DNA of 36,816 bases, from the IMG/VR virus record IMGVR_UViG_2563366829_000018, positions 1 through 36,816 of that record; one strand, given 5' to 3'. A program made the position numbers and the translations under genes. Each line of letters opens with the position of its first letter. Positions within the stretch are counted from its first letter, which is position 1. The notes beneath the pieces are model-generated. The model worked only from the letters and a program-made list of their open reading frames with translations, made no database searches and had not been told where the DNA came from. This DNA is from a virus. Lineage: Duplodnaviria; Heunggongvirae; Uroviricota; Caudoviricetes. Shown here piece by piece: positions 2,270-28,785 of this stretch.

Positions 2270-2968
2270 TTACTGCGAAAGTTTATTAATGGAAAGGAAA
2301 CCGCCAAAATTGCCGACATTCCTGCGCAGTTCACACCCGCGCATGCACTTGCTGCATCTGTCCTTACGGATATCCGTGGTGGGGTTGTCGAACTCATCCG
2401 CCACAGCCCCGCCCGTGTAACCACACTCATCAGAGCGGTAGGTCCACATACAGGTGTTCGCCAGCATGATACGACCGGGAAACAGCGCCCCGTCCGTCTC
2501 GGTCGGTGTGGCCAGCACAAACGAGGCCGTCATGGCTGTCAGCTGCGACATCTGCTCCACCACCCAGCGGTCACTCAGCTCCTGCTCCGGGTCCGCCTCC
2601 GGATTGCCCGCAACGAAATTCACCGCATCCAGAAAACGGGCATACACCCGGCGGCGGACCACCGTGGCCCCCACCAGACTCTGCAGGTCCTCCGCCATCC
2701 CGGTGACAAGGCCAAACAGATTGGACACCGTCAGCGACGGGCGGGCACTGCTGCCCCGACCGTTCATCTCAAAGCCGCTGCCGTCAATCGGGTATGCCTC
2801 ATACTTACGCCCCTGCCAGGTGACCGGCTCCCCTTTTTCATTCAGCTCATTACAGAAAAAATACCGCTCACCGCCCTGTACCGTCAGGTCGATTTCCCAG
2901 AGTACCACGCTGGCAGACTGCTCCGCACGGGTGCATTCATTCAGTGTTTCCTGTCGGATATCCTGCAT
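2270..2968 (-). CDS. L: Minor tail protein L
   Basis: 232 aa, same length as lambda gpL and recognisably similar; Cys-rich C-terminus. Confidence 0.9.
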   Translation of the reverse strand: MQDIRQETLNECTRAEQSASVVLWEIDLTVQGGERYFFCNELNEKGEPVTWQGRKYEAYPIDGSGFEMNGRGSSARPSLTVSNLFGLVTGMAEDLQSLVGATVVRRRVYARFLDAVNFVAGNPEADPEQELSDRWVVEQMSQLTAMTASFVLATPTETDGALFPGRIMLANTCMWTYRSDECGYTGGAVADEFDNPTTDIRKDRCSKCMRGCELRRNVGNFGGFLSINKLSQ

Positions 2969-3297
2969 CAGTTCACCACCTGCTTAAACTCCGCGCTGAA
3001 CTCAACGCGCAACATCCCGACCCGCGCAGACCACCCGGCACAGGTCACCTTTATCTGCCGGTAGCCATAAGGCGGCGTCCACAGAAAGGCCTTCCAGCCC
3101 CCGTGCTCAGCCAGAAACGACTCCAGCGCCGTGGCCTCCTCACGGGAGACAGACAGCGTCACGCTGTACGTTTTCAGGTCAGCGTTCAGCCCGGCAGGCG
3201 CACGCTGGGAATAGCCATCACCAAAGCGCACCTCCCTGACGGAAGGAGCCGATGTCACATCCATCCCGGGTTTCACTTTCCAGCGGAAGGTTTTCAT
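2968..3297 (-). CDS. M: Minor tail protein M
   Basis: 109 aa, same length as lambda gpM and similar; 1-nt overlap with L. Confidence 0.9.
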   Translation of the reverse strand: MKTFRWKVKPGMDVTSAPSVREVRFGDGYSQRAPAGLNADLKTYSVTLSVSREEATALESFLAEHGGWKAFLWTPPYGYRQIKVTCAGWSARVGMLRVEFSAEFKQVVN

Positions 3298-6200
3298 CGT
3301 CCACCTCCGGAGAACAGACCACCATCACGGGACTGCTGTTGCATAAAGTCCGCTGCTGCTTTTTTCCCGAGATCATAAACCACCTTCAGGGCAGCCGGAC
3401 CTATCTGCCCGTTCGTGCCATCGTTATTGATCTCGATGTTGTACTGCGGGGCAAACATCGCCATACCTGAACCACCAATATCCGCCACAACCCCCAGCTT
3501 ACCGTCAGCACCACGACGCAGAGGCAGAATGGCTTCAGGCCCAGCTTCCCCCATCACACCTGCACCTTTTGCAAAAGCAAAAAACGTCGGACGATTAACC
3601 ACCGTGCCACTGTAGCGACTCAAATCAGCAGACTGATAAACACCACCATCAGCATTGGGCGTCACACTGGCAGTTGCTGCACTCCCCCAGCCAAACGCCG
3701 AACCAATCCCCTTAACTGCCTGCATCATGGACATCTGAGCCATGATTTTTGCCAGATCAGAAAGGAGCGAGGCGGTAAAAGATTTGAAGTTCAGTTTTCC
3801 GGTAGTACAGAACGTTGCCAGTGCATTACCTGCACTGTTAAATGCCGCTGTAAGCATCTGCTCAGCAGTGCCTGCCGCATTATCCGCATCTGCCGTGAAA
3901 TTCTGAAACGCCCGCATAGCACCGTTTTTCCAGTTACCCTGAGCAATTTCAAGCTGTTGCCAGTAACGGTGATTCTCATTCAGTTGTCGGTTCAGGCTCT
4001 CCGTCAGCGCCTGCTCGGCCTTTCTGTAGTCATCCGTGTTATATGTCCCTTTCTGCTCACTATCCCGCCTCAACTGCTCCAGCTGTTGCTGGTATTTCTG
4101 GCGAAGACTCAGTTGTACCTGATATCGCTGCCGCTGCTGATCACCCATACCCACCGTGGCGATATCCAGGTCATGTTGCTGACGCTGAGCGCGCTCTTCT
4201 TCAGCCAGTTGACTGGTCAGCTGAATTGTTTTTTTCTTCAGATCGTTGAGTGCCGTCTGTTTCTGAAGCTCCTGCTGTTTTACATCCAGCAGCGTCAGTG
4301 CCTGAATCAGTTCATCTTTACGGGCCAGCACACTCTTTTCATCTGCCGTCAGTTTTTTCCCGTCCAGATCGCTGATGCGCTGCTGCAGAGCCAGAAGCTG
4401 TTTATGCGCTTCTGTCATCCTGTCAGTGGCAATGCCTGCTGACTGTCTTGCAGCAGCAATCTGTCCTTCCACCTGTGCCTGTTGCTGGCTGTACTGCAGC
4501 AATAACCGGGTGGCCTCATCATTACGGGTTTCGCGTGTTTTTTTCTTACCGGATGCCAGGGCTTTCTCGTAACGTTCATTTTCACGTTGTATCGCAGCAT
4601 CCCTGACAGCCTGATCGGCGTACTGCATGGCATTAATACGCGCAATTTCACGCTGATGTCGTGCAGCTTCCGTTTCATTCATCCGGTTCAGTGCAGCATT
4701 TTCAGCATTACGGCGTTTCTGTTGCTCCTGATAATTCCGCTCTGCCTGCTCTTTTGCATCCTGCAAATCCTTCTGGCGTTTTTTCTCCTGAAGATCGTTA
4801 AGACGCTGCTGATCGTATTCAACCTGAGAAGATGATGCCGTCCAGGGGAGTCTTTTCGCCCGCGACACTTTCTCCTGCAAAGTGGCAATCTGCGCATCCA
4901 GCGAATCTTCACGACCAATATTCATGGCCGCATCCCAGAACTGCTTCCACCAGTCAGACAAAGTTTGCAGCGTACTGCCCAGCGCATTGAGGTTATTATC
5001 AATATCCGCAGTACGCCGACCGGTTTCCTCTGCCAGTGCAGACATGGCTATCCGTGCCGCATCACTGGACCGCCCCTGCTCTCCAAGGACGCGTATCTGC
5101 TCAAGCTGAGTGGCAGTAAGAAAATGCAGCTCATTGTCCAGAGACTTCGCGGCATTTACAGGATCATCCTTCAGCCGCTTAAACTGATTTATGGTATCGC
5201 TGACCGACTGGCCAACCGATCGCTCCATCTGTGCGGCAGCTCTCGCCACCATACCGATATCGTTTCCACGAAATGCACCACTCCCCACCACCTGAGCCAG
5301 CGCACCGGCTGCAGCATGTTGCGTGATACCATTCCCGGAAATAGCACGACTGAGCGTCCACAGCTGCCCGGCAGTGACTCCGGCATAATGCCCCGTCAGC
5401 GACAGCTGGCGGTTAAATTCTTCCCCCTCCTTCTGACCGTCATACCAGGCTTTACCCAGGCCATAGACAGCCGCGGCAATACCGCCAATAACCCCGCCAA
5501 GCATCATGCCTTTCGGTGACATCAATGTGTCTATCCACCCGGCACGGTTAGCCAGCGTTATTCCGGATCCCCTCAGCGCACCTAAATTTCCGCGGGCCAG
5601 TTCACCTATCAGAACGCCTATCTCCTGACGGGCCGCTGCACTTTTCAGCCCCAGCGAATGCGTGGCTTTTCCTGCCTGCTCCATTTTGCGGATATACACT
5701 TCTGCAGCACTGCTTACCCCCAGCTGGGCAGCCTTAGCACGAAGCAACTCAGAAGAAGAAAGATTCTGGCGGGTTGCCTGCTCTTTAAGCTGACGGATAA
5801 ACGCCACTTTCTGTCGGGTAGCCTCTTCCTCAGCCTGTGTAAGAACACGGGTTTTCGCAGTAACCTCAGAAATCAGCGCCAGATAATCCTGCTGACCAAT
5901 CCCGCCACTGTTTCTGGCCTGTCGGATCTGCTGCTGAATACGCTGTAATTCCTGCAGCCCCGCACTGGCCTGTTTCACACTGTCAATCTGACGATAAAAC
6001 GCAGCAGCCGCTTTATCCTGAGCCTCCGCCAGAGCCATGGCCTGCGCCTGTTCCTCGCGCATTTTCTGGCTCAGTGCCTCCATGCGCTGGCGGGTTTTCT
6101 CCACCTCACGGGCCATGCGTTCATGAGCCTGTGCGTTCTTCTCCACCGTCTGCGCATGAACGGATGCGGCTGTTGCAGCCGAAGAAGCCGCCTGCGTTGT

Positions 6201-8280: not shown

Positions 8281-8867
8281 CGGGTCAGCCATAATCTCAG
8301 TTGTTGTTTCAGTGCATACCCCAGCTGTTTCGGCATTTCCGCAGCAATGATGCGGTCGCGGGCATCTTCAAATGCCTGTGTCAGCGGTCCGGACAGCGGG
8401 ATTTTCACTACCTCCACAGGAAGACGATTTTTTCTTGGCCTGCCCTGATGGTCATGCCCTGTTGCAAAACGCGCTTCAGGAAGACGCCTCAGAACATGCC
8501 AGCGGCCATTCGCCAGTTGCTGAACAAATGCCCCCCGGAAAAAGTATTTTCCCACTCTCAGTCCTTCACCAGCACGCCGCCGTGTTGTGTTCAGTTTGAT
8601 GGCGGGCAGATTGCCCCGGTTAACGCGGATCCTGGCCGTCATTTTTCCTGACGGACTGGCTTTAAACACCCGGACACGCTGACGTACCAGTTTCAGGGGG
8701 ATCCCTTTCACCTGGTTATCTCCCGCAACGGTATTCCCGGCAACCTTCCGGGTGGCAACCGAGACCGCTTTCTGTGCCACACGGTTTATCGCCCATGCGC
8801 TGGCCTGTGGCACCATACGGGTATCAAGGCTGTTCAGATTGCGGATGGCATTCTCAAGCCCCTTCAT
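8277..8867 (-). CDS. Z: Tail completion protein Z
   Basis: 196 aa; position and size match lambda gpZ. Confidence 0.8.
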   Translation of the reverse strand: MKGLENAIRNLNSLDTRMVPQASAWAINRVAQKAVSVATRKVAGNTVAGDNQVKGIPLKLVRQRVRVFKASPSGKMTARIRVNRGNLPAIKLNTTRRRAGEGLRVGKYFFRGAFVQQLANGRWHVLRRLPEARFATGHDHQGRPRKNRLPVEVVKIPLSGPLTQAFEDARDRIIAAEMPKQLGYALKQQLRLWLTR

Positions 8868-8878
8868 CCCACACCTCT

Positions 8879-9154
8879 TTACTCAATAAAGATCATTGGT
8901 TTACCGTTAAAGCGTTCATGCCGTGTGACCGTCCATTGTTGTCCGTCATAAACAACGCGATCCCCGCGCCGTGGGCGGTATCCCGAAGAAAACACCACCA
9001 GAGAGACCGCAGGTCCGGACAGAGCATTCAGCTCTGCCAGTGTTTCTCCCGGGATCACAGTCATATCGACATCATTAATCGAGGCTGTCTTTCCCATCTT
9101 TCTGACCGTGATCGCATCCATACGCGCTGCCAGCCGGGAAAAGGGATCAGACAT
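8879..9154 (-). CDS. Head-tail joining protein, FII-like
   Basis: 91 aa; position between head and tail modules; loose similarity to gpFII. Confidence 0.55.
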   Translation of the reverse strand: MSDPFSRLAARMDAITVRKMGKTASINDVDMTVIPGETLAELNALSGPAVSLVVFSSGYRPRRGDRVVYDGQQWTVTRHERFNGKPMIFIE

Positions 9155-9470
9155 TGAGTTTTACCGGCACTTCTTCTGCACTGGTTCCGGCATCTGCCCA
9201 GACAACCCCGACCAGCGGATCAGAGCCGCTGTTAGTCAGCTGAACTTTTCCGGACTTCAGATAAACCTTCTTACCCGTTTTCATATCATCCGTTTTCAGC
9301 TTAGGCAGCATAAACACACCTTCGGTCATGCCGTCGCCTGTTTCACCCTGTGGAATATCGGTCAGCGCCACCGCAAAAACATCACCCACCTGCACCAGAT
9401 CTCCGCTGCTGATGGCTGCACTGGCAACAATCGCCACCGTTTTTCCTTCTTCTACAAAATTCTTTGCCAT
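9147..9470 (-). CDS. DUF2190-like phage head protein (putative decoration or assembly protein)
   Basis: Start MAKNFVEEGKTVAIVA preceded by GGAG; immediately downstream of the capsid gene. Confidence 0.55.
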   Translation of the reverse strand: MAKNFVEEGKTVAIVASAAISSGDLVQVGDVFAVALTDIPQGETGDGMTEGVFMLPKLKTDDMKTGKKVYLKSGKVQLTNSGSDPLVGVVWADAGTSAEEVPVKLNV

Positions 9471-9556
9471 AACTGTCTCCGCACAGCCCCGTTCAGGGGC
9501 TGATTTCAGGTACAAAAAAAGCCCTTACGGGCCATCAGAGTTGTTATCTGCGACGT

Positions 9557-11515
9557 TTACGCCGTACATTTCACCAGACCGCGGTGATCAACTGGCGCGA
9601 CACCGGCGTCAATACGCACTTTCGTTGTCACGCCATCCACACTGAAGCCCTCCATCTGATCAATATATGGCGTATCCACACCGTTGAGATAAGCCACTTC
9701 AATCGTATCGGAGCCTTTTGACGCAGCCAGGTAGAAGGTGGTCTGGCTGTTATCATCAAGACGAGGCTCTGCAATAACGGTCGCAAAATCTTTCACCGGG
9801 TTAATAATACCGGCGTTAATGTCAGCCCCCTTGACACTTGAGGAGCGAATGACCTGGTTAGCAACAGACTCCATCGCCGTCGGTACCAGTACGAACGCAG
9901 GACGAATATTCAGATGACGCTCCCCCTCTTTCTGAACGCGCATCAACTGGCGGGCTTTATCCAGCGATGCCACGTCCATTGCAGCGCTCTCCAGTACGTT
10001 TGCATGTTTCGCTTTATCGAACAGACTTACATTATCTGTGGAGATTTTCGGGTTAGACGTCAGAATGGCATAAACCAGATCGGCAATAGTGGATTTCGCC
10101 GCACGGCCCAGTTTCATCGGGACATCGGTCAGCATATTCAGATCATCATTGATAATGGCCTGACGGGTGATACTGAACAGCTCGCCATAGGTCGCCAGTG
10201 CAATAGTGGCCTGTTTATCTCCGGTGGTGACGTATTTATATTCCGCCCCTTCACGCACCTGACGCAGAGCACTGAAGCCCCCCATACCCACACGATGGGC
10301 AATTTTAAAATCAGACAACTGACCTTTCCGCGTCCACTGTTCATAGGTTTCAGGAGCATCTTCCCAGCCCTGCAGAATGGCTTTGTTCGCAACATCCAGC
10401 AGAATATTACCGAAGTCAGACGTACTGTGTGTGAACGCCGCACCGACCATCTGCATCGGGTTATAACTGGAAACCCCAATACCCCGTTCAGTCAGTGACA
10501 TACGGGCATATTCACGCAGGGTCATCCCGTTGTAGACATTATCACGTTCGGTTTTTTCAAATCCGGCACGCGCCATCAGCGCCTGGCGGATCCCGTCCCC
10601 CACAAAATTACCGTTACCGGCATAAATATGAGCCGGTGTATTTTTATTGGATGGCGTGGACTCGCGCCCCATCTCGTTCAACAGCTTTTCGCGGGCCTGC
10701 TCCAGCGAACATTCAGGATCGGCAAGACACTGAGCCTGCAGCGTCTGATAACGCCCGCCAAACATGGCAAACAGATCATTAATACCGTTTACACGCGCTT
10801 TTTGCTCTGCCAGTACCTGCGCACGGATACTGTTTTCATCCACCACGGGTGCTGCTGCCTGCACTGGCGTCCGGGAGGCTGCAGGTTCATCATCCTGTAC
10901 GCGTGGAGCACTGTTGCGTGGCGGAGTAATCATGTTTCGAATGGATTCCGGCATCTTTTTAAATTCCTCTGTACGTTTTGACTGAATACATGCCATTGCC
11001 TTAACGGCTGGCGTCACCTGATCAGCAAATCCATGTGCCAGACATTCGGCACCGGACATCCAGGTCTCATCCGCCAGCATGGCAGCAATTTCATCGGTGG
11101 TTTTCCCGGTTTTCTGTGCATAAGCGGGTAACAGAACCGCCTCAACCTTATCGAGCATGTCGGCATAGGTGCGCATGTCCTCCGCATCACCGCCCGTAAA
11201 GCCAAATGGTTTATGAATCATCATGAAGGTGTTTTCCGGCATAATGACCGGGTTTCCCACCATCGCAATGACCGACGCCATTGACGCCGCCACACCGTCG
11301 ACATAAACGGTAATGGACGCACCATGTGTTTTCAGCGCATTAAAAATGGCTATGCCTTCAAAGACATCGCCACCCGGTGAATTGATATGGAGATTAATGT
11401 GGGTGATATCGCCCAGTGCATTCAGATCACTGATAAACTGCTTCGCTGTAACACCCCAGAAACCAATCTCGTCATAAATATAAATATCCGCGTCACTCTG
11501 GTGACCAGCCTGCAT
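9557..11515 (-). CDS. Fused prohead protease (ClpP/S14 family) and major capsid protein (HK97 fold)
   Basis: N-terminal ClpP-like segment (INSPGGDVFEGIAIFNALK, AASMASVIAM), middle Ala/Gln-rich region, C-terminal capsid-like domain; start MQAGHQ overlaps the portal stop. Confidence 0.8.
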   Translation of the reverse strand: MQAGHQSDADIYIYDEIGFWGVTAKQFISDLNALGDITHINLHINSPGGDVFEGIAIFNALKTHGASITVYVDGVAASMASVIAMVGNPVIMPENTFMMIHKPFGFTGGDAEDMRTYADMLDKVEAVLLPAYAQKTGKTTDEIAAMLADETWMSGAECLAHGFADQVTPAVKAMACIQSKRTEEFKKMPESIRNMITPPRNSAPRVQDDEPAASRTPVQAAAPVVDENSIRAQVLAEQKARVNGINDLFAMFGGRYQTLQAQCLADPECSLEQAREKLLNEMGRESTPSNKNTPAHIYAGNGNFVGDGIRQALMARAGFEKTERDNVYNGMTLREYARMSLTERGIGVSSYNPMQMVGAAFTHSTSDFGNILLDVANKAILQGWEDAPETYEQWTRKGQLSDFKIAHRVGMGGFSALRQVREGAEYKYVTTGDKQATIALATYGELFSITRQAIINDDLNMLTDVPMKLGRAAKSTIADLVYAILTSNPKISTDNVSLFDKAKHANVLESAAMDVASLDKARQLMRVQKEGERHLNIRPAFVLVPTAMESVANQVIRSSSVKGADINAGIINPVKDFATVIAEPRLDDNSQTTFYLAASKGSDTIEVAYLNGVDTPYIDQMEGFSVDGVTTKVRIDAGVAPVDHRGLVKCTA

Positions 11516-18473: not shown

Positions 18474-18550
18474 TGGCGCGTTGTACTGGATTCGAACCAG
18501 TGACCGATTGCTTAGAAGGCAATTGCTCTGTCCGGTTGAGCTAACAACGC
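18474..18550 (-). tRNA. tRNA-Arg, anticodon UCU
   Basis: 77-nt cloverleaf folded by hand: GCGTTGT acceptor, anticodon loop CTTCTAA, TTCGAAT T-loop, encoded CCA. Confidence 0.85.
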
Positions 18551-18563
18551 AGGGTACAGATAA

Positions 18564-18640
18564 TGGACCACCATCGAGGACTCGAACCCCGCGCAACCAG
18601 CTTCGAAGGCTGGTGCTCTATCCTGATGAGCTAATGGCGG
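18564..18640 (-). tRNA. tRNA-Arg, anticodon UCG
   Basis: 77-nt cloverleaf folded by hand: anticodon loop CTTCGAA, TTCGAGT T-loop, encoded CCA. Confidence 0.8.
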
Positions 18641-18647
18641 TATGTGA

Positions 18648-18723
18648 TGGTGGCCCTTGCTGGATTTGAACCAGCGACCTGGCGATTATGAGTCGCTCGC
18701 TCTCACCACTGAGCTAAAGGGCC
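18648..18723 (-). tRNA. tRNA with CAU anticodon, ileX-like (Ile2 via lysidine, or Met)
   Basis: GGCCCTTTAGCTCAGTGGTGAGAGCGAGCGACTCATAATCGCC...CCA closely resembles E. coli ileX. Confidence 0.85.
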
Positions 18724-18751
18724 GAGCCAAAAAATAATAATCAGATGAAAA

Positions 18752-19465
18752 TCAATAATCAAGCCCTTGCCTGGATACATATCTGTCTGGCGGGAAGCCA
18801 TAATAGCGGTGAAATACAGAAATAAAGTAGGACCTGCTTGAATAACCGCATTTTTCTGCTATAGCCTGTCCATATCCATGCCGGGAACATAACATATTTA
18901 CAGCAACACGCATCCGCTCTTCCAGCAACAAGCGACTGAACATGCCCCCTTCATTTTTCAGTTTTGTCTTTAACAAACTCTCACTCATATGCAACTGTAG
19001 AGCAATCGCACCAAGCGTCCAGCTTGCTGATATATCTGTCTGAATTATCGCCCTGACTTTGGCACTTATGCTGGATAAACATCCACTTAAAAACAATGAC
19101 ATCCGTTCATCTGTTTCAAACAGAGACAGGCAGGCCATCATAAGAAACATATCCGTGGCCTCTCCGGAAAATCCCTGGCTGGTAATTAAAGCCGCAGCCA
19201 ACGCAGGATTGTTGGGTTCCAGCAACAGGTAAAGCGGAATGTCAGTCAGACGAGTCCTCGTCAGCTTATGCTGACTTTCCAGATATTGACTTACGACGGA
19301 TTCGCTTATATCGACAATTTTAACTTTGCCATAATGCATAAGGAAAAGCTCCCTGATGCATTTGGTGGCCAGAACAACTGAGCCTGGCTTAAGTGACAAC
19401 GTATCCTTTTCAAGAAAAATATTAATTGGGGAGCAAACCATGATAACTGAACAGACAACAGCCAT
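18752..19465 (-). CDS. AraC-family transcriptional regulator (prophage cargo, PatE-like)
   Basis: C-terminal AraC-type HTH (SESLLKTKLKNEGGMFSRLLLEERMRVAVNML ... GYSSRSYFISVFHRYYGFPP); AT-rich gene; start may be the internal Met at 19441. Confidence 0.75.
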   Translation of the reverse strand: MAVVCSVIMVCSPINIFLEKDTLSLKPGSVVLATKCIRELFLMHYGKVKIVDISESVVSQYLESQHKLTRTRLTDIPLYLLLEPNNPALAAALITSQGFSGEATDMFLMMACLSLFETDERMSLFLSGCLSSISAKVRAIIQTDISASWTLGAIALQLHMSESLLKTKLKNEGGMFSRLLLEERMRVAVNMLCSRHGYGQAIAEKCGYSSRSYFISVFHRYYGFPPDRYVSRQGLDY

Positions 19466-20768: not shown

Positions 20769-21140
20769 CTATATGTAACAATCAATTTCTAAAGATACCC
20801 CCAACATTGCCAGACAACCGTCAATAAACCCTTCAGCTTTCTGCAGTCTGATAACAACCTGATTAAGTGATATCCCCAGTTTTACCCCCAACACCCGTAA
20901 TGTAACCCCATACACATAATACATTTCCAGTAATTCGTATTGATACGGTTCCTTTTTCTTAAGAACTGTCATCGCAGAGCTAATGATCAGGCCATCGTCA
21001 TCGCTACATTGCGGGCGGGATTTTACTTTCGAAGGAATTAATCCCTTAAAACCTGCAGCAACAGATGACCATTCCACATCCTCGTGATTATTTGCCACCC
21101 ATGCCCCCCAACGTTCAAGAACCATTTGAATATCACGCAT
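20769..21140 (-). CDS. Q: Late-gene antiterminator Q (QuuD/phage-82 type)
   Basis: MRDIQMVLERWGAWVANNHEDVEWSSVAAGFKGL matches the QuuD-family N-terminus as I recall it; GGAG RBS; position upstream of the lysis module. Confidence 0.75.
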   Translation of the reverse strand: MRDIQMVLERWGAWVANNHEDVEWSSVAAGFKGLIPSKVKSRPQCSDDDGLIISSAMTVLKKKEPYQYELLEMYYVYGVTLRVLGVKLGISLNQVVIRLQKAEGFIDGCLAMLGVSLEIDCYI

Positions 21141-21157
21141 CAACTTTCTCCACAAAA

Positions 21158-22153
21158 TCAGGCCAGCACGCCTATTGCCAGCGCACGATCGATAAAACGA
21201 AATATCAGCTCCAGCTGGGAGCCATACTTCTCTTCAAATGCCACGGTATCCGCATGCAGCTCGTCGTGATGCTTTCTGCACAAAGGCAGCACGAAGAGGT
21301 CATGCGCTTTTGTACCCATTCCCCCCTGACCGTGGCCTATCAGGTGGTGGGGATCATCAGCAGGCTTTCCACAACATGCACACGGCTGCGTCTTAACCCA
21401 GCGCGTGTACTTTTCATTAACCCAGCGGCGACGTTTGGGGCGTAACATAAAAGACTCCGGCGACTCCGGATCCACTTTCAGCGCCAGCACCTTTTTCGCT
21501 TTATCCTGGATGATGCTGGTGGCAGGAACCGAAGGCACAAGGTCACTTTCCCGGGTGACAGACGGCACAACAGGCTTCGGTAATCTCAGTGCCTTACGGG
21601 CTGCACTTTCCGGTAAGGCATCCGCCAGGTCATTACGAATCAGCCACCAGCACAGTTCCGGCATTGTCACAACGTGACTGTCATCAAAACCGAGATCCCG
21701 ACGCACAACAGACAACACCCAGCGGGCACAGTTATCCGTTGCCATTGATTCCAGCCGTTCCGTGAACTGATCGCGCAGCTGGTTATCGCAGTGCCAGCAC
21801 AGACGGATTGCACCCGGAGCGTGTCGCATTGTGGTCATGTTCTCGCTGTGCCATCCGGAATGAGGCCACTGGCAGCCTTTTTCACGAAGTAACCAGCTTT
21901 CAAGACATTCCACGCCACCAGCACGACGGATCACTGCCTCATGGCGGAACACGGCCCGAACGGCAGGATCATCCGCCAGCGGTTGTGATGCCGCCGGAAC
22001 GGCACCACTGGCGAAAGATGAATAACGCTCCGGCTCAGGCTCCAGCAGGACACGCCCCTGCATAAACAGGGGCATCAGCTCTGAACCTGGCCTGAACAAT
22101 ACGATCCCCATACGCGGGGCAATTTCAGGGGTCAGTAGTGCTCTCACAGTCAC
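21158..22153 (-). CDS. DUF968-family protein (YdfU-like) with a C-terminal Cys/His cluster
   Basis: CACCGKPADDPHHLIGHGQGGMGTKAHDLFVLPLCRKHHDELH; sits immediately upstream of Q as ydfU does in Qin. Confidence 0.75.
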   Translation of the reverse strand: MTVRALLTPEIAPRMGIVLFRPGSELMPLFMQGRVLLEPEPERYSSFASGAVPAASQPLADDPAVRAVFRHEAVIRRAGGVECLESWLLREKGCQWPHSGWHSENMTTMRHAPGAIRLCWHCDNQLRDQFTERLESMATDNCARWVLSVVRRDLGFDDSHVVTMPELCWWLIRNDLADALPESAARKALRLPKPVVPSVTRESDLVPSVPATSIIQDKAKKVLALKVDPESPESFMLRPKRRRWVNEKYTRWVKTQPCACCGKPADDPHHLIGHGQGGMGTKAHDLFVLPLCRKHHDELHADTVAFEEKYGSQLELIFRFIDRALAIGVLA

Positions 22154-22154
22154 C

Positions 22155-22970
22155 TCAATGAACGGTATCGAGCAGCTTTAACAGCTCAGGAAATCGGGAT
22201 TCGAAGAAATGCGGCTGCGTCTCGCGCGGATTTGCAGGACTGGTGATGTTCTTGCCGAACATGCAGCCTTTCGCGGTCAGCGACCAGAATTTTTTGATGT
22301 TGTTAATCGCGGTACGGCTGTATCGTTCGCGTTGTTCAACGATCCCCAGCTTCGCCATCTGGTGATATGCCTGATTAGCCGTCAGGCGGATACCATACTG
22401 CTTCAGCAGTGCACTCAGCGACAGCGTAGGGCGGCTTGAACCATCTGGCGCATCAGCAGGTGCATCAATGGCATAGATCGGCATAAGTTCAGGAAGACCA
22501 GCTACCTTTGATAATTTCTGGTATGCACCAAGTTTCGAGGAGTTTGACAGATTTAGAGTCTTTGCTGCTGATTCAAGCAGAATGACCCCGGATTTAATTT
22601 TGTCGGATGTGGTTTCTTCTGGTGATGAATTATGAAGCGCATCAAAAGTACGTATCACTTTTAAGCTGAATGCCGGGCTGATCCACATTGCATATGCATA
22701 GACCAGCTCTTTACAGACATACGTCCCACCATTGCGCCCCTGAATGGTGATGACAGGAATACTACGGGAATCTCCCGTAGTTTCTTCTTCCAATAATTCC
22801 ACAAGAGCCTTCGTTTCAGGACGACGCATAAACTCGTGAACTTCCAGCGAACGGGAGGAGCGATTCTCACCAGCGGCAAGAAGAGCAGCTTTCTGAAGGT
22901 CGTTAAGACAGTAGTTAGATTCGAAGTACTGGCGCACAGAAACGCCATCAATTACAAGCAACTGATTCAT
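22155..22970 (-). CDS. KilA-N domain protein (antirepressor-like)
   Basis: N-terminal KilA-N-like segment; start MNQLLVIDG preceded by GGAG. Confidence 0.6.
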   Translation of the reverse strand: MNQLLVIDGVSVRQYFESNYCLNDLQKAALLAAGENRSSRSLEVHEFMRRPETKALVELLEEETTGDSRSIPVITIQGRNGGTYVCKELVYAYAMWISPAFSLKVIRTFDALHNSSPEETTSDKIKSGVILLESAAKTLNLSNSSKLGAYQKLSKVAGLPELMPIYAIDAPADAPDGSSRPTLSLSALLKQYGIRLTANQAYHQMAKLGIVEQRERYSRTAINNIKKFWSLTAKGCMFGKNITSPANPRETQPHFFESRFPELLKLLDTVH

Positions 22971-23132
22971 TGGTTTCTCCACAAATTTTTATCCACGAGC
23001 GGGACTGCACTCCCTTTTCGTTGATGCAGGATGAACTTACTGCGATTTTTAATAGTTATCAAGGATACACTGTTCATAAATACAGTATCTTTAACGAGGT
23101 AATACCCAAATTTAGGGTGTTGCTCAATTCCG

Positions 23133-23528
23133 TTACCGAGTTGCTAATTTGCAACTCGCTTTTTCGTACTTACTGATAGTGATCTCGACCTTCCCCTCCG
23201 GGATAACCGGTCCCCACTCCACCAGCATTCTTTTCACCTGACTGTCGTCTTCCCACACACCCGCGTGGGTCAGGGCGTCAAACAGCGCCTTGTTATAGTT
23301 GTCCAGATCGCGGATCCGGTTATCCGGAGGAAACAACACGATCTCCACTGAAGCAGGTGCCGACGTTGGTTTCGGCAGACGACGTAACTGCTCAACTATT
23401 GCTGCACACGCCGCGCTCTGGAATTTTCGCCCCGCCGCGCTTATCAGGCTCTTACCAGCAAACGCCCCTTTGTTGGGGTGTCGCCAGTACGTGTTCACGC
23501 TGGGCGGAAAAGGCAGTATTAGCTTCAT
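23133..23528 (-). CDS. rusA: Holliday junction resolvase RusA
   Basis: RDLDNYNKALFDALTHAGVWEDDSQV matches the RusA catalytic core (RRRDLDN...FDAL). Confidence 0.85.
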   Translation of the reverse strand: MKLILPFPPSVNTYWRHPNKGAFAGKSLISAAGRKFQSAACAAIVEQLRRLPKPTSAPASVEIVLFPPDNRIRDLDNYNKALFDALTHAGVWEDDSQVKRMLVEWGPVIPEGKVEITISKYEKASCKLATR

Positions 23529-23851
23529 ACTTTCAGGCCCCTCTCATGTAACCAGTGGGTTGCACGCAGCCTTGCGTTTTCCTCACCGGCAAGCAGTGCG
23601 CGGATAATCCCGACCGCCTCGCTGTCGTCGTCCTTCATCGCAGTATGAAGCGTTATCCCCCGGGCCACGCCACGCTTTATCGTGATGACGCCTTTTTTCT
23701 CCAGTGCGCGAAGATGCTCCACCGCTGCATTCACCGAACGGTATCCCAGCATGGTTGCCACCTCCTGATTGGTTGGCGGGAAGCCACGTTCTTTCTGATA
23801 AGAAATCAGCATATCCAGCACCTGCTGCTGGCATTGAGTTAACGTCGTCAT
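23525..23851 (-). CDS. LexA N-terminal DNA-binding-domain protein without a peptidase domain
   Basis: LTQCQQQVLDMLISYQKERGFPPTNQEVATMLGYRSVNAAVEHLRALEKKGVI parallels the LexA winged-HTH; only 108 aa. Confidence 0.65.
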   Translation of the reverse strand: MTTLTQCQQQVLDMLISYQKERGFPPTNQEVATMLGYRSVNAAVEHLRALEKKGVITIKRGVARGITLHTAMKDDDSEAVGIIRALLAGEENARLRATHWLHERGLKV

Positions 23852-24501
23852 GCCGCCATCTCCCTGACCAGTTTTTCCGCCTGCTGGCGAACCTGCGCCA
23901 GAAACGCCTCACCACATGCCTCAAGTTCATCGCGCCCTATGTAGCTGATTGCCGGTCCCTTCCAGGTCTTGTCGAAAACAGCAATAGCACCAGCGAAGAA
24001 AGCACCTGTTGGCACCTGCTTTTCGTCTTTCGGGATAAACCAGGCAGGCAGTTCAAAACCAATACGCCCGCGAATAAAAGCAATATGATCTGCATCTTCC
24101 GGCCACCACACTTCGCTGGTGGCAGCTTTGATCAGGAAAACATAGCGCCCGCCTTTATCACGCATGGCACTGGCATGTTTCATGATGTAACGCATGCCGG
24201 TGATGTATTGCCCCTCATGCTGACTGGCGCGGCTGTACGGGGGATTACCAAAGGCAGCACCTTTAAGCTCCGCAAGACGTTCAGACCAGTCATGCGCCAG
24301 CGCGTTGTCTTCCGCAGTGTAATACGCAGCACATTTGGCGTTATCACCGTCAGTGAACAGATCCAGAACAAACGGGCCAAACAGGGTGTTAATTCCCCAG
24401 AAAATGTTGTCCGGCGTGCGCCACTGATCGCCCACTTCCTTCAGTTCATGGGCTGGTTTGTTCCGCAGTTCCACCAGCGCCTGGCAATATTTATTACTCA
24501 T
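23848..24501 (-). CDS. Phage DNA N6-adenine methyltransferase (Dam-like), orphan
   Basis: NPPY catalytic motif (FGNPPYSRAS); no adjacent restriction gene; start set at MSNKYCQ. Confidence 0.8.
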   Translation of the reverse strand: MSNKYCQALVELRNKPAHELKEVGDQWRTPDNIFWGINTLFGPFVLDLFTDGDNAKCAAYYTAEDNALAHDWSERLAELKGAAFGNPPYSRASQHEGQYITGMRYIMKHASAMRDKGGRYVFLIKAATSEVWWPEDADHIAFIRGRIGFELPAWFIPKDEKQVPTGAFFAGAIAVFDKTWKGPAISYIGRDELEACGEAFLAQVRQQAEKLVREMAA

Positions 24502-24995
24502 TAAGCCCCCACGAAATTCCCTGACAGATACCACTCTTCACCCGATGCAGCGCGCTTGCTGCTTTTCCGTAAGCACCGCTCACGACGTGCCAGAAAATTG
24601 TTTCGTTCTGGCTGGGAGTGGCTTTCACGGAATGCCGCCATCCACACCGTTGCAGCACGACGGTATAAGCCCCTGGACTCCAGTTCTTCAGCCTGGCGGG
24701 TCAGGCACAAAATCACACGGGGATCGTTAGTGCCGACATAGAAATTGCGCACAGGTCTGGTTTCACGAACTGGTTGTGGTTCCGGATCCTGCGCTCTCTC
24801 AGTCAGGCGTGGGAAATGTCTGCGTGTATCTCCTTCACAACGGTGAGCCACACGCCCACTCTGACGTAACTTGCTTGCTGACTGCAGAACGCGCTGCCGT
24901 GAGTAACCAGCAAAAGCATCCGCAATGTCTCCGGAAGTACAGCCCGGATGGGCTTCAATGAATTTCTGAACTTCATTCAAAAGACTCATGATCAC
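24501..24995 (-). CDS. Hypothetical protein with a PerC-like C-terminal region
   Basis: LESRGLYRRAATVWMAAF resembles the PerC/Pch signature (GLWRRAA..W); ATGA coupling with the upstream gene. Confidence 0.45.
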   Translation of the reverse strand: MIMSLLNEVQKFIEAHPGCTSGDIADAFAGYSRQRVLQSASKLRQSGRVAHRCEGDTRRHFPRLTERAQDPEPQPVRETRPVRNFYVGTNDPRVILCLTRQAEELESRGLYRRAATVWMAAFRESHSQPERNNFLARRERCLRKSSKRAASGEEWYLSGNFVGA

Positions 24996-25810
24996 CCCCT
25001 GAATCCTTCCGGGATCTGGCTGTAGTCCACGTTGTCGTAACTGGCTTTGAAGTACGGGTCCTCGCGTCTGACTGCAGATACCGCAGGAACTTCCCAGGAT
25101 TCTTCGAAATGACGATCCGGGCCAAAGAACGTGACAGCCTGTTTCACAAATTGTGTGCCGCTGTTACCCATCGCAGATACCCAGCCCGCGTAGCGTTTCA
25201 CACCTTCCAGCATGGTTTCGGGGTTTACCCCCTCATTCAAACGGGCTTTCCAGGCTTTGAAGGCTGCAGATTTTGAATTGCCACCAGCACGTTTTGGATA
25301 GGCCAGCCATGCCTGCTCAAACTCCGGAGAGTATTCCGGTCGGTTTGAACGAACTCGCACAGACTCATCAGCAGATGCACCAACAGCTATTGGTTCATTG
25401 ACTGGTTCTTTGACTGGTTCAAAAGAGTGACTGGTTCTGGGTGAATCTCCTGCACTACCCCCTGGTGCAACTCCTGCACTACCTGGTGAATTTGCTGCAC
25501 CAGATAGTGAATTATTTGCACTACCCCCTAGTGAATCTCCTGCACCATCAAGATGAAGGAGATAGATATTACTTGAGTTACCTTTTTCACCTTTCCGGGT
25601 GACTTTTTTTACCAGCCCGGACTCACAAAGGGCCGCAATATGATTCATCACAGAACGTTTGCTAATCTCGCACTGGTCAGCAATATGCTGGTAGCTGGGC
25701 CAGCACTCACCCTGATCGCTGGCATTATCAGCCAGCTTAATCAGAACCAGTTTTCGCAATGGATTTCCCACTCGAATTTTCATCGCTTTAACCATCAACT
25801 CCATACTCAT
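24992..25810 (-). CDS. Replication initiator (O-like, N-terminal winged HTH) with a repetitive linker encoded by iterons
   Basis: N-terminal HTH (SYQHIADQCEISKRSVMNHIAALCESGLV); Gly/Ser/Ala-rich repeat region coinciding with DNA direct repeats. Confidence 0.6.
   Translation of the reverse strand: MSMELMVKAMKIRVGNPLRKLVLIKLADNASDQGECWPSYQHIADQCEISKRSVMNHIAALCESGLVKKVTRKGEKGNSSNIYLLHLDGAGDSLGGSANNSLSGAANSPGSAGVAPGGSAGDSPRTSHSFEPVKEPVNEPIAVGASADESVRVRSNRPEYSPEFEQAWLAYPKRAGGNSKSAAFKAWKARLNEGVNPETMLEGVKRYAGWVSAMGNSGTQFVKQAVTFFGPDRHFEESWEVPAVSAVRREDPYFKASYDNVDYSQIPEGFRG
25390..25550. repeat. Candidate replication origin iterons inside the O-like gene
   Basis: Three copies of TGACTGGTTC (25399-25438), two exact copies of GTGAATCTCCTGCAC (25441 and 25531), repeated TGCACTACC units. 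Confidence 0.55.
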
Positions 25811-26031
25811 GCAGCACCTCCGAGATGCTTCATGTTTTTTCCGGAGCGAAAGGCTATAAGCGGCATACTGACGCGGTAATTACGGCCCAGCGGTTCACAA
25901 ATCACCTTCTGACATTCACGGTCAACCAGGCTAACACGTAGAACATGCCCTGCAGGCGTGGTGTACCACTGACCCGGACGAGGACAACGGAAAGTATGAT
26001 TGGTAAACCGTTTGAAAATATTCCGGATCAT
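25807..26031 (-). CDS. Hypothetical small protein (74 aa)
   Basis: ORF translationally coupled to the O-like gene; no recognisable domain. Confidence 0.3.
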   Translation of the reverse strand: MIRNIFKRFTNHTFRCPRPGQWYTTPAGHVLRVSLVDRECQKVICEPLGRNYRVSMPLIAFRSGKNMKHLGGAA

Positions 26032-27188
26032 TTACGCCCCCTTACCTCTGAAGGGTTCAGCGACAAATTTATGAGACTGGCCAGTAGCGCCGCGTCGTTG
26101 ATGCGGTCATACAGACTTACAGCCAGCGGGGATTCGGCTTTTGCCAACATGGGATAAAGCTGCTGCAGCCAGACCTTGTGGATTACCGACAGGTGGGAGT
26201 AAAGCACGCTGGCGTTATCTGCGGCATCGCTCAGCGTGGATGGCTTTGAAAGCAGTTTTTCCATCTGGTTAAAGGCATTGATGTATGCCTCTTTGAACCG
26301 GGCAGCACGTTTACCCGTGAAACCCATAGCAAGAAACGCAAAACCGTCTCGTGTGATTTGATAGCAAAGGAGCTTGCGTGTACCACCGTTCGGTTGATTT
26401 ACCGAAATCGATGTCTCCGCAAAATTGCGGGCACAAAACTCAGGGGAACAATCCAGAGTGCGGATCTTTTTCAGCACATCGTCGTGACGCTTGGAGAAGA
26501 AGTTGGCAACAGCCAAAGAAGTGGTAACGGCCTGGCCGTTGTCAATGGTGATTTCAGGTTGAGTGAGGGCTGGGATCGTAGCCATGATGGCAGCCTCCGT
26601 TGACAGTGAAAAACTTCCACCACCGGAAACGCCAATTTCACTGGTGGTGAACTGGACGGGGTTGGCGTAACCGGCGTCAACGGAGACCGGCGCACCTTTC
26701 GGTGCCCCCGCCCAGCCCACCATAATCTGGATGTGAGCAAATGCGGACGATAAAAAAGACGCTGGCGCGTCATACATCGCCGTTGACAATTTCAGGACGC
26801 CAATCCCGGCACCCGCTTTATAAGGTGCCTGAACAGTGTAACGTCCCGGAATTGCAGAATCAATATGCTGGTGGTCCTTCACACTCAACAAAATCACGCC
26901 TGAATTTCCACAAAGGACTAAAGCACTCATGCGGGTAGTCTTTGCGAAGATAGATAACGCGCTGTGTTTCTGGCTCCCAACGAATAACATGGACATAAAG
27001 CCCTCTTCCGTCACGAAACCAGCGGTTAAGTTCCTGCACAACTCGCCCCCCACAGTCAGGTAAAGTTCTCTGTGGTTACTTACAGCCAGGTGATTTGGTA
27101 ATCTGCATTCATGCCGTAACAACAGGTGTTCAGCGACGCTGACCACCAGCTGTTGCGACAAACGGTTATTTGCCGTTAAACTATTCAT
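26028..27188 (-). CDS. Rha-family phage regulatory protein with a ~200-aa N-terminal extension
   Basis: Rha-like core (ITIDNGQAVTTSLAVANFFSKRHDDVLKKIRTL) at residues ~210-300; ATGA coupling with the CII-like gene supports the long form; an alternative start at 26585 has a GGAGG RBS. Confidence 0.55.
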   Translation of the reverse strand: MNSLTANNRLSQQLVVSVAEHLLLRHECRLPNHLAVSNHRELYLTVGGELCRNLTAGFVTEEGFMSMLFVGSQKHSALSIFAKTTRMSALVLCGNSGVILLSVKDHQHIDSAIPGRYTVQAPYKAGAGIGVLKLSTAMYDAPASFLSSAFAHIQIMVGWAGAPKGAPVSVDAGYANPVQFTTSEIGVSGGGSFSLSTEAAIMATIPALTQPEITIDNGQAVTTSLAVANFFSKRHDDVLKKIRTLDCSPEFCARNFAETSISVNQPNGGTRKLLCYQITRDGFAFLAMGFTGKRAARFKEAYINAFNQMEKLLSKPSTLSDAADNASVLYSHLSVIHKVWLQQLYPMLAKAESPLAVSLYDRINDAALLASLINLSLNPSEVRGRK

Positions 27189-27742
27189 GCGTTAGTTTCT
27201 CCACAACCAGAAGCAATCGACGCCACGACGCCCGGAGCTGCACACTCGCGGGCGTTACTCTTTTCTGGAGCGCAGAAGATTTTGTAGACCAGTGCTGCAT
27301 GCTCCTGGAGCTTCGAAATTGAAAGATACAGTTCGTCGTTAATTGCTGTCTTCTCATGCGGTTCCACTACACCGTCTTCGATTGCTGAACGAATCTGTCT
27401 GGAATAACTGCCGATCTGTTCAATGACTTCCAGCAGGCGCTGGTTTATATCGGCGTTCTCTACTGCCTCAATTTCAGGAAGCGATACGAACACCCCACCA
27501 GCAGACTGTGCGACAGCATCCGCAATGTAGTGAGTGCCAGCCGCACGCTGTAAAACCATTGCCCATCCCAGCGGGAAAATCTGATCGCCATCTGCACGAA
27601 GGCGGTTGAATAATGCGTTCTCTGTTACATCCAGCCACTCAGCAGCTTCAGCGTAACCCCCCGGCAACGCCGCGATAGTTTTTCTGACAGCTTTCACGTA
27701 CCACTCAGGCTGTTTTTCCACTTTCCAGTGATGATTACCCAC
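27185..27742 (-). CDS. Putative CII-like regulatory protein
   Basis: Position immediately downstream of cro; assignment is by position and weak resemblance only. Confidence 0.4.
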   Translation of the reverse strand: MGNHHWKVEKQPEWYVKAVRKTIAALPGGYAEAAEWLDVTENALFNRLRADGDQIFPLGWAMVLQRAAGTHYIADAVAQSAGGVFVSLPEIEAVENADINQRLLEVIEQIGSYSRQIRSAIEDGVVEPHEKTAINDELYLSISKLQEHAALVYKIFCAPEKSNARECAAPGVVASIASGCGETNA

Positions 27743-28092: not shown

Positions 28093-28785
28093 ATGAACAT
28101 AGGAAACCGAGTCAGACAACTTCGCCAGGCGAAGAACATGAAAATCGCCGATCTCGCTGAAGCAATAGGAGTGGATGCGGCGAATATCTCACGCCTGGAA
28201 ACAGGTAAGCAGAAACAATTCACTGAACAAGCCCTGAGTAATATTGCCAGGAGCTTAGGTGTTGATATCGCTGATCTCTTTACCTCAGACGTCAAAAGTA
28301 ATACTGTATGTAAAAACAGTATTGGTGAGGATGTTGCGCAGGTGAAGGATGTATTCCGTATTGAAATGCTGGATGTCAGTGCCAGTGCGGGAAATGGCCT
28401 TATCCAGGGCGGTGATGTCATTGATGTGATTCATGCCATTGAATACAGAACTGATAATGCTGTATCGATGTTTGGCGGACGGCCAGCCAATCACATTAAA
28501 GTTATCAACGTTCGTGGGGACAGTATGTGTCCAACCATTGAGCCAGGAGATCTCATCTTCGTTGATATCAGTATCAATCAGTTTGATGGGGATGGTATAT
28601 ATGTATTTGGTTTTGATGATAAAATTTACGTCAAACGACTGCAAATGATACCTGATAAACTGCTGGTAATTTCTGATAATCAGATTTACCGCGAATGGGG
28701 AATTACCAGCGAAAACGAACATCGGTTTATGGTCTTTGGAAAGGTCTTAATCAGTCAGTCACAAACCCTTAAGCGACACAATTAA
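28093..28785 (+). CDS. cI: CI-type prophage repressor (XRE HTH plus S24 LexA-like autopeptidase domain)
   Basis: N-terminal HTH; C-terminal S24-like domain (VRGDSMCPTIEPGDLIFVD ... KIYVKRL); no Shine-Dalgarno sequence upstream of the ATG. Confidence 0.9.
   Translation: MNIGNRVRQLRQAKNMKIADLAEAIGVDAANISRLETGKQKQFTEQALSNIARSLGVDIADLFTSDVKSNTVCKNSIGEDVAQVKDVFRIEMLDVSASAGNGLIQGGDVIDVIHAIEYRTDNAVSMFGGRPANHIKVINVRGDSMCPTIEPGDLIFVDISINQFDGDGIYVFGFDDKIYVKRLQMIPDKLLVISDNQIYREWGITSENEHRFMVFGKVLISQSQTLKRHN

Follow-up and report, generated by a model that had tools for sequence, protein, structure and literature searches.

What a phage gains by carrying the DNA-binding half of LexA without the half that undergoes autoproteolysis is the question raised by a small gene in a 36,816-nucleotide stretch of viral DNA (IMG/VR record IMGVR_UViG_2563366829_000018, Caudoviricetes), hereafter the window. 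This DNA is an E. coli lambdoid prophage, and over 7 kb it shares 99.9% identity with one inserted next to mlrA in strain B20123; the gene, here named lexN, encodes a LexA-DNA-binding-domain protein of 108 amino acids (LexN). A preliminary description of this locus had held that the protein parallels the winged helix of LexA, lacks the S24 peptidase domain and could bind SOS boxes in a non-cleavable manner, affecting the SOS response or prophage induction. The structural part of that description is borne out by the results given here, and its functional idea is plausible on sequence grounds. The favoured explanation, to which a probability of roughly 0.4 is assigned, is that LexN stands in for LexA as a phage-made, RecA-insensitive protein that binds LexA-like operators. 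The gene and its parts are located as follows.

23525..23851, minus strand: lexN coding sequence, 108 amino acids, stop codon included, ATG start (open reading frame listing; PF01726; PHROG 362; ratio of nonsynonymous to synonymous polymorphism, pN/pS)
23636..23851, minus strand: LexA-type winged helix-turn-helix, codons 1-72 (LexA alignment, AlphaFold2, Foldseek)
23696-23737, minus strand: recognition helix, residues 39-52, within the winged helix
23528..23635, minus strand: two-helix tail specific to the family, codons 73-108, helices at 73-88 and 93-103 (AlphaFold2 model, conservation)

Residues 1-70 of LexN are a LexA-type winged helix. The Pfam profile LexA_DNA_bind (PF01726) is matched over its full length by residues 1-65 (1-65 of 65, E = 2.9e-19), and in a phmmer search of the PDB, where the top matches are E. 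coli LexA entries, LexN residues 2-70 align without a gap to residues 2-70 of LexA's DNA-binding domain (1LEA, E = 6e-16). BLASTP against full-length E. coli LexA, in a sequence that agrees with the PDB alignment, yields 43% identity over 90 amino acids (E = 1e-21) and ends at LexA residue 86. The AlphaFold2 model, which was built on 20 family members and has a mean predicted local distance difference test score (pLDDT) of 83, comprises helices 6-22, 28-35 and 40-52, strands 56-58 and 66-68, and helices 73-88 and 93-103. Its top Foldseek matches are chains of the LexA-DNA complex 3JSO, onto which residues 1-68 are placed with a root-mean-square deviation of 1.0 Å over 67-68 residues at 50-51% identity. 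The bases of the LexA operator are contacted by Ser39, Asn41, Ala42, Glu44 and Glu45 (PMC3091678, PMC13416735). Compared with E. coli LexA (1LEA, 3JSO), LexN keeps four of these five contacts (S39, N41, A42 and E45), position 44 being Val; the wing residues R64-G65 are identical, and the recognition helix reads RSVNAAVEHL against RSPNAAEEHL in LexA, with two differences. Among 53 tail-bearing members of the family, S39, N41 and G65 hardly vary, and 47 members keep E45.

The remainder of LexA is missing from LexN. No Pfam match to Peptidase_S24 (PF00717) is found in the protein, and the NCBIfam lexA equivalog TIGR00498 aligns over model positions 1-91 of 203 at 70.4 bits, below its cut-off of 110.95. 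The Ser119/Lys156 dyad of the S24 domain, which is also the dimerisation domain of LexA, is not present, nor is a conserved Ala-Gly cleavage site. The protein stops at residue 108 and the next open reading frame is that of RusA; because the stop codon of lexN overlaps the rusA start, no S24 remnant can follow it.

This loss of half of LexA might be read as the mark of a functionless, decaying remnant of a captured lexA. That reading is refuted by the selection signal and now deserves next to no credence, since pN/pS across 43 distinct alleles from 82 loci is 0.08. The value is 0.04 for residues 1-72 and 0.18 for residues 73-108; lexN is a real, working gene under strong purifying selection, and very strong selection acts on the winged helix. 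Relatives down to 39% identity keep both a length of 104-118 amino acids and the tail, the gene is coupled by an exact ATGA overlap at either end, and 2233 of 5426 complete E. coli genomes (41%) carry it, with up to four copies per genome.

An identical LexN sequence is found on at least 1000 contigs, and the exact sequence falls in a 2,527-member 90% cluster, for which RefSeq gives the name "LexA family transcriptional regulator" or "repressor LexA". PHROG 362 ("transcriptional repressor") is matched by LexN 1-108 at profile positions 1-106 of 106 (E = 1.2e-59). Proteins 95-99% identical to LexN include SfV orf42, mEp460 gp46 and those of SfII, phage cdtI and many Stx2a/Stx2c phages; the mEp460 and SfII copies carry the annotation "LexA DNA binding domain protein". 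LexA-domain-only phage proteins form a broad, recognised class in BFVD. Public databases therefore already describe LexN as the preliminary description did. A full-text literature search found no experimental paper on the enterobacterial LexN family or on which DNA it binds, and the gene is known as annotation and not as biology. What has been found is an ordinary and very common gene of prophages, near known kinds, namely LexA, LexA-domain-only phage proteins and the phage protein gp6 discussed below. Polypeptides of 140-350 amino acids with two LexA_DNA_bind stretches in tandem were also encountered (P0132, P0133, P0147, P0148, P0153-P0155, P0159, P0161-P0163 and P0168), in which the LexA domain may form a covalent "pseudo-dimer".

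The part of LexN that the preliminary description overlooked is the tail, and residues 73-108 make up a separate conserved domain. Where LexA has its C-terminal dimerisation domain, LexN has 36 residues forming two helices. Relatives of 39-66% identity conserve these residues, A97 and L101 without exception, and the pattern seen across clades, E-A-x-x-I/L-I/L-R-x-L-L ... A-x-x-R-A-x-x-W/F-L, is unlike the LexA hinge. The tail could in principle be a pseudo-substrate or decoy, its Ala88-Gly89 filling the active site of either host LexA or the S24 repressor of the phage, or being cut in trans; HMMER and BLASTP both extend to LexA residue 86 and place LLAGE over the VAAGE of LexA (Ala84-Gly85). 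However, this dipeptide is AK, VG or AN in close relatives and is replaced by unrelated residues in distant ones, and the region is predicted to be helical with no extended strand. Because Ala88-Gly89 is not conserved it is not a LexA cleavage site, and the decoy, which was very improbable, was rejected.

A tail that dimerises the protein is likely, as judged from the behaviour of comparable fusions. LexA-based two-hybrid fusions likewise join the DNA-binding domain to a foreign dimerising module, repress an SOS-box promoter (sulA) and do not respond to RecA. Hybrids of LexA(1-87) with the Jun zipper behave like dimerising two-hybrid fusions. The LexA DNA-binding domain represses sulA-lacZ with a dimerising partner and not with a non-dimerising one (PMC7595419), and since the bare domain fails to repress while the dimerised domain succeeds, we infer that the tail of LexN serves as the dimeriser. 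These fusions differ from LexN in using authentic LexA residues, whereas the LexN sequence has moved away from them (about 50% identity, E44V) and LexN would owe its dimerisation to the tail.

The window itself contains two SOS boxes with four or fewer mismatches to the 20-mer consensus, and not one of 1000 dinucleotide shuffles gives even a single such box. These boxes and the genes next to them are listed below.

23068..23087, minus strand: SOS box TACTGTATTTATGAACAGTG, 4 mismatches to the consensus; candidate operator for host LexA and, putatively, for LexN
22155-22970, minus strand: gene for a KilA-N protein, downstream of the 23068 box (Pfam; RefSeq annotation of the 99.9% identical locus)
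21158-22153, minus strand: DUF968/HNH gene, downstream of the 23068 box (same sources)
20769-21155, minus strand: antiterminator Q gene, downstream of the 23068 box (same sources)
28302..28321, no strand assigned: SOS box TACTGTATGTAAAAACAGTA, 3 mismatches, in the open reading frame of the cI-like repressor; second candidate operator
28093-28785, plus strand, divergent: cI-like repressor with an XRE-type helix-turn-helix (HTH) and an S24 domain (domain matches)

The first box lies 45 nt past the rusA stop and 97 nt ahead of the KilA-N ATG. It is tied to this KilA-N allele, being found in all 41 loci that have the allele and in none of the 38 with other alleles, and two loci have the box without lexN. 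This strict linkage suggests, on promoter evidence that is weak, a LexA-controlled entry upstream of KilA-N-DUF968-Q and with it a route to the late-gene antiterminator that does not depend on the phage repressor. The second box sits in the linker that joins the HTH of the repressor to its S24 domain, recurs in the repressor gene of mEp460 and in 25 of 80 close loci, and is not found in SfV cI. It is a perfect palindrome with 8-nt arms, AATACTGT-N8-ACAGTATT.

The motif CTGT-N8-ACAG occurs three times in the window against 0.43 expected. When spacings of 0-16 are compared for CTGT-Nx-ACAG, N8 is enriched and is the sole spacing with AT-rich spacers like those of SOS boxes. The N15 spacing is also above chance and was set aside, its three sites being GC-rich and intragenic. 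The third CTGT-N8-ACAG, at 27070-27085, has a GC-rich spacer and lies inside the Rha/Ash gene; it is shared by the homologues of that gene in SfV, Stx2a_WGPS2 and mEp460 and is probably just conserved coding sequence. A scan for inverted repeats between 18000 and 29500 returned the immunity operators and the SOS box, with no further candidate operator.

SOS boxes within 6 kb were also tallied in the 80 close loci, where the types are not exclusive and one locus can have several.

Inside the repressor gene or close to it: 25 of 80 close loci
Where a methylase gene downstream of Q starts: 22 of 80 close loci
In the rusA/KilA-N intergenic region: 20 of 80 close loci
Without any SOS box in the 6 kb: 33 of 80 close loci

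The methylase-associated box, TACTGTAAAAATAAACAGTG, lies across the start of a gene for a DNA methyltransferase, which is placed between Q and the lysis genes; the box is at 8907-8926 in SfV (L002) and at 9597-9616 in mEp460 (L004), and was seen in 22 of 80 loci (L007-L086).

Under the favoured explanation, the tail would dimerise LexN, and the dimer would bind operators resembling SOS boxes, namely inverted repeats of the CTGT type. Having no cleavable site, LexN would bring back repression of the LexA type after the destruction of host LexA in induction, or would add to that repression during infection. The likely targets would be the phage SOS boxes ahead of KilA-N-DUF968-Q and inside the repressor gene, while host SOS promoters and the LexA-controlled genes of rival elements are further possible targets. 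The net effect would be that SOS-dependent expression is damped or limited in time. A more ambitious version, in which LexN is a RecA-proof surrogate of LexA on canonical SOS boxes and, in induction or infection, re-silences the host SOS regulon together with LexA-controlled genes of the phage, of rival prophages and of plasmids, is tentative and would be a doubtful wager.

When LexN would be made is indicated by the setting of its gene, which differs from that of lexA in being prophage-encoded and part of a lytic operon. More specifically, the translation of lexN is coupled to that of dam and rusA, the three genes lying in the early lytic (nin-region) operon of this lambdoid prophage. The remaining features of the operon are these.

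Minus strand: cro-like gene, first gene of the early-right operon
27185-27742, minus strand: CII-like CP76 gene, early-right operon
26028-27188, minus strand: Rha/Ash gene, early-right operon
24992-25810, minus strand: replication protein gene, early-right operon
24501-24995, minus strand: PerC-like gene (PerC-family regulator), two genes upstream of lexN, early-right operon
23848..24534, minus strand: dam, phage N6-adenine methyltransferase, upstream of lexN in the same operon (PF05869, E = 1e-45; TIGR01712, 255 bits)
23848..23851, minus strand: ATGA overlap of dam stop and lexN start (read from the sequence)
23525..23528, minus strand: ATGA overlap of lexN stop and rusA start (read from the sequence)
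23133..23528, minus strand: rusA, RusA Holliday-junction resolvase, downstream of lexN in the same operon (PF05866, E = 6e-15)

The dam/lexN overlap is also annotated in SfV, Stx2a_WGPS2 and mEp460. Because of the gene order and the two ATGA overlaps, the pR transcript is the expected source of LexN following induction or infection. The repressor combines an XRE-type HTH with an S24 domain, and the phage should therefore be induced by repressor self-cleavage. Beyond Q lie an AraC-type regulator, three tRNAs, the lysis genes and the structural genes. The AraC-type gene is at 18752-19465 on the minus strand and is followed by the tRNA genes, the whole stretch covering 18474-19465; the three tRNAs are Arg-tct, Arg-tcg and one with a CAT anticodon (Met according to ARAGORN, Ile according to RefSeq). 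A PADLOC search gave no meaningful match to a defence system.

The constancy of these neighbours raises another explanation, namely that LexN is a DNA-binding accessory of RusA, DUF968/HNH and Dam, for example one that targets or restrains them on phage DNA, with no role as a transcription regulator. The coupling to rusA is tight, its start being at offset 0 from the end of lexN in all 80 close loci. Among eight more distant contexts, which hold relatives of 39-66% identity, rusA directly follows lexN in five (mEp390, P0126, P0086, P0160 and P0209) and lies within two genes of it in two more (P0139 and P0123). DUF968 comes after lexN wherever the contig reaches that far, with Q following in most of those contexts, and methylase genes lie just upstream in most. 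However, gene order in the lambdoid nin region is conserved by lineage and is a weak sign of joint function. The eighth context, a Klebsiella phage, and the clade that it represents have lexN without rusA, while two loci have dam-rusA without lexN. In addition, the recognition helix is conserved in the manner of a sequence-specific binder. An accessory role is accordingly considered improbable.

The more distant relatives place the family in a second setting. A scan with P0139 found 34 viral contigs, of which 28 contain the block phrog_1813-lexN-phrog_1212-DUF968 (the Klebsiella-type clade); a scan of viral contigs with P0209 gave no matches. At least one SOS box lies 250-1500 bp upstream of lexN in 27 of these 28 loci, and box density in that upstream zone is 1.00 per kb compared with 0.025 per kb elsewhere in the same loci. 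The boxes represent 19 different sequences. In many loci the box is about 20 nt ahead of dinI (PF06183, E = 8e-22), and the operon then runs SOS box-dinI-phrog_1813-lexN-phrog_1212-DUF968-Q with overlapping reading frames, as in Klebsiella phages Kp4865-4 and ST846-OXA48phi9.1. Two further loci, L251 and L254, show a terminator, a promoter and an SOS box followed by phrog_1813, lexN, (phrog_1212), rusA, DUF968 and Q, the L251 promoter (TTGCAA-17-AATAAT) being a good one. Examples of such SOS-headed operons, dinI-phrog_1813-lexN-phrog_1212-(rusA)-DUF968-Q, are the following.

L265: 4320-7174
L292 (Kp4865-4): 2302-4900
L251: 4560-7413
L254: 4561-7195

The prevalence of the boxes, the diversity of their sequences and the presence of dinI operons together argue that the family has repeatedly been wired into SOS circuitry, beside the SOS damper DinI. 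None of dinI, phrog_1813 and phrog_1212 is found in the window, where lexN is fed by the pR operon. Two of the listed loci have other features nearby: the prophage in L254 adjoins an AcrVA2-like gene and cas1 (8794-10357), and in L251 the stretch 2863-4232, immediately upstream of the SOS box, holds a toxin-immunity-like pair (RNase_A_bac/CdiI_2) on the other strand.

The nearest parallel to this arrangement is in the Gifsy prophages, in which a LexA-controlled operon of dinI, an antirepressor gene and irsA induces the prophage (PMC3121763). The Klebsiella-type relatives match its layout, with terminator, promoter, LexA box, dinI, a small open reading frame, lexN, phrog_1212, a nuclease and Q, against the Gifsy-2 slots of dinI, gftA, a DUF1367 protein, phrog_1212, NinG and Q. 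This layout was seen in L251, L254, L256-L282, L289 and L292, and is not that of the window. The assignment of lexN to the irsA slot and of phrog_1813 to the antirepressor slot is by position alone: IrsA was ruled out as a LexN homologue, being the DUF1367 protein, and phrog_1813 has no similarity to the Gifsy antirepressor GftA. By analogy, the layout suggests that phrog_1813 is a candidate new antirepressor family and that the operon could provide an SOS-driven route to Q. DinI homologues, like gp7 of the Bacillus thuringiensis tectivirus GIL01, are small phage modulators of the SOS response, and dinI shares an operon with lexN in the Klebsiella clade; the difference is that DinI homologues and gp7 act on the RecA or LexA protein, whereas LexN would act on DNA.

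Several observations weigh against LexN as a LexA stand-in, and some of them speak for its main rival, in which the LexA fold has been borrowed for a phage-specific transcription factor that would activate or repress, through an operator of its own, a phage promoter such as one for KilA-N, DUF968/Q or the lysis-lysogeny genes. The first concerns the recognition helix. Position 44 is never Glu among the 53 family members (Val in 44, Ala in 3, Phe in 3 and other residues in 3). By comparison, Glu44 is present in 75 of 80 genuine LexA genes from gamma- and beta-proteobacteria, whose helices read NAAEE in 57 and NAAED in 17. These controls are host lexA genes returned by a scan of genome contigs with the family alignment, for which the search pattern came from the recognition helix and which found only host lexA. 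Loss of Glu44 is therefore a signature of the family. Glu45 has also been lost in some clades that lie behind strong SOS boxes, as in NAVALHL (L265) and NTVFIHL (P0209), so that the family as a whole is not bound to the LexA contact set. Together these losses argue for some change of specificity.

The second set of observations concerns the boxes. Those upstream of the relatives prove control by host LexA and not binding by LexN. In the window, a consensus promoter scan passes no promoter near the 23068 box, which is flanked by weak -35/-10 candidates only, and 33 of the 80 close loci have no SOS box nearby. It also counts for the rival that the operon of lexN leads always to DUF968 and mostly also to Q.

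The third is precedent. The only characterised phage LexA-domain protein is gp6 of GIL01, a truncated LexA homologue that binds a palindrome of its own, GaCACAnnTGTGaC, and activates the late promoter P3 (PMC6182141). Like LexN, gp6 is essentially a LexA DNA-binding domain encoded in the early operon of a temperate phage, and the GIL01 life cycle is tied to host LexA. Unlike LexN, gp6 is 66 amino acids long and has no tail, whereas LexN has 36 additional residues. BLASTP of gp6 against LexN gives no alignment at E <= 100, and because gp6 derives from a Gram-positive LexA and has no similarity to LexN, the two look like independent captures.

Against a private operator, no other conserved palindrome emerged in the regulatory regions of the window, the recognition helices of LexN and LexA are just two positions apart, and late expression in lambdoid phages depends on Q, with no activator needed. 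A private operator is thus possible but, in our estimation, rather unlikely.

The contribution added here is the link between the lexN family and the SOS-box-headed dinI operons of its relatives. Should LexN bind an operator of its own instead of SOS boxes, it would be the second case, after GIL01 gp6, of a phage LexA fold used as a private regulator. If LexN is a LexA stand-in, it would be a widespread and unrecognised factor that modifies SOS dynamics, the cross-induction of prophages and the release of toxin, with Stx2 phages among its carriers. Binding to SOS boxes would mean that many E. coli strains, including lysogens of Shiga-toxin phages and of Shigella serotype-converting phages, hold a repressor of the SOS regulon that is immune to DNA damage, which would matter for mutagenesis, for the induction of prophages by antibiotics, for the release of Stx and for competition between co-resident prophages.

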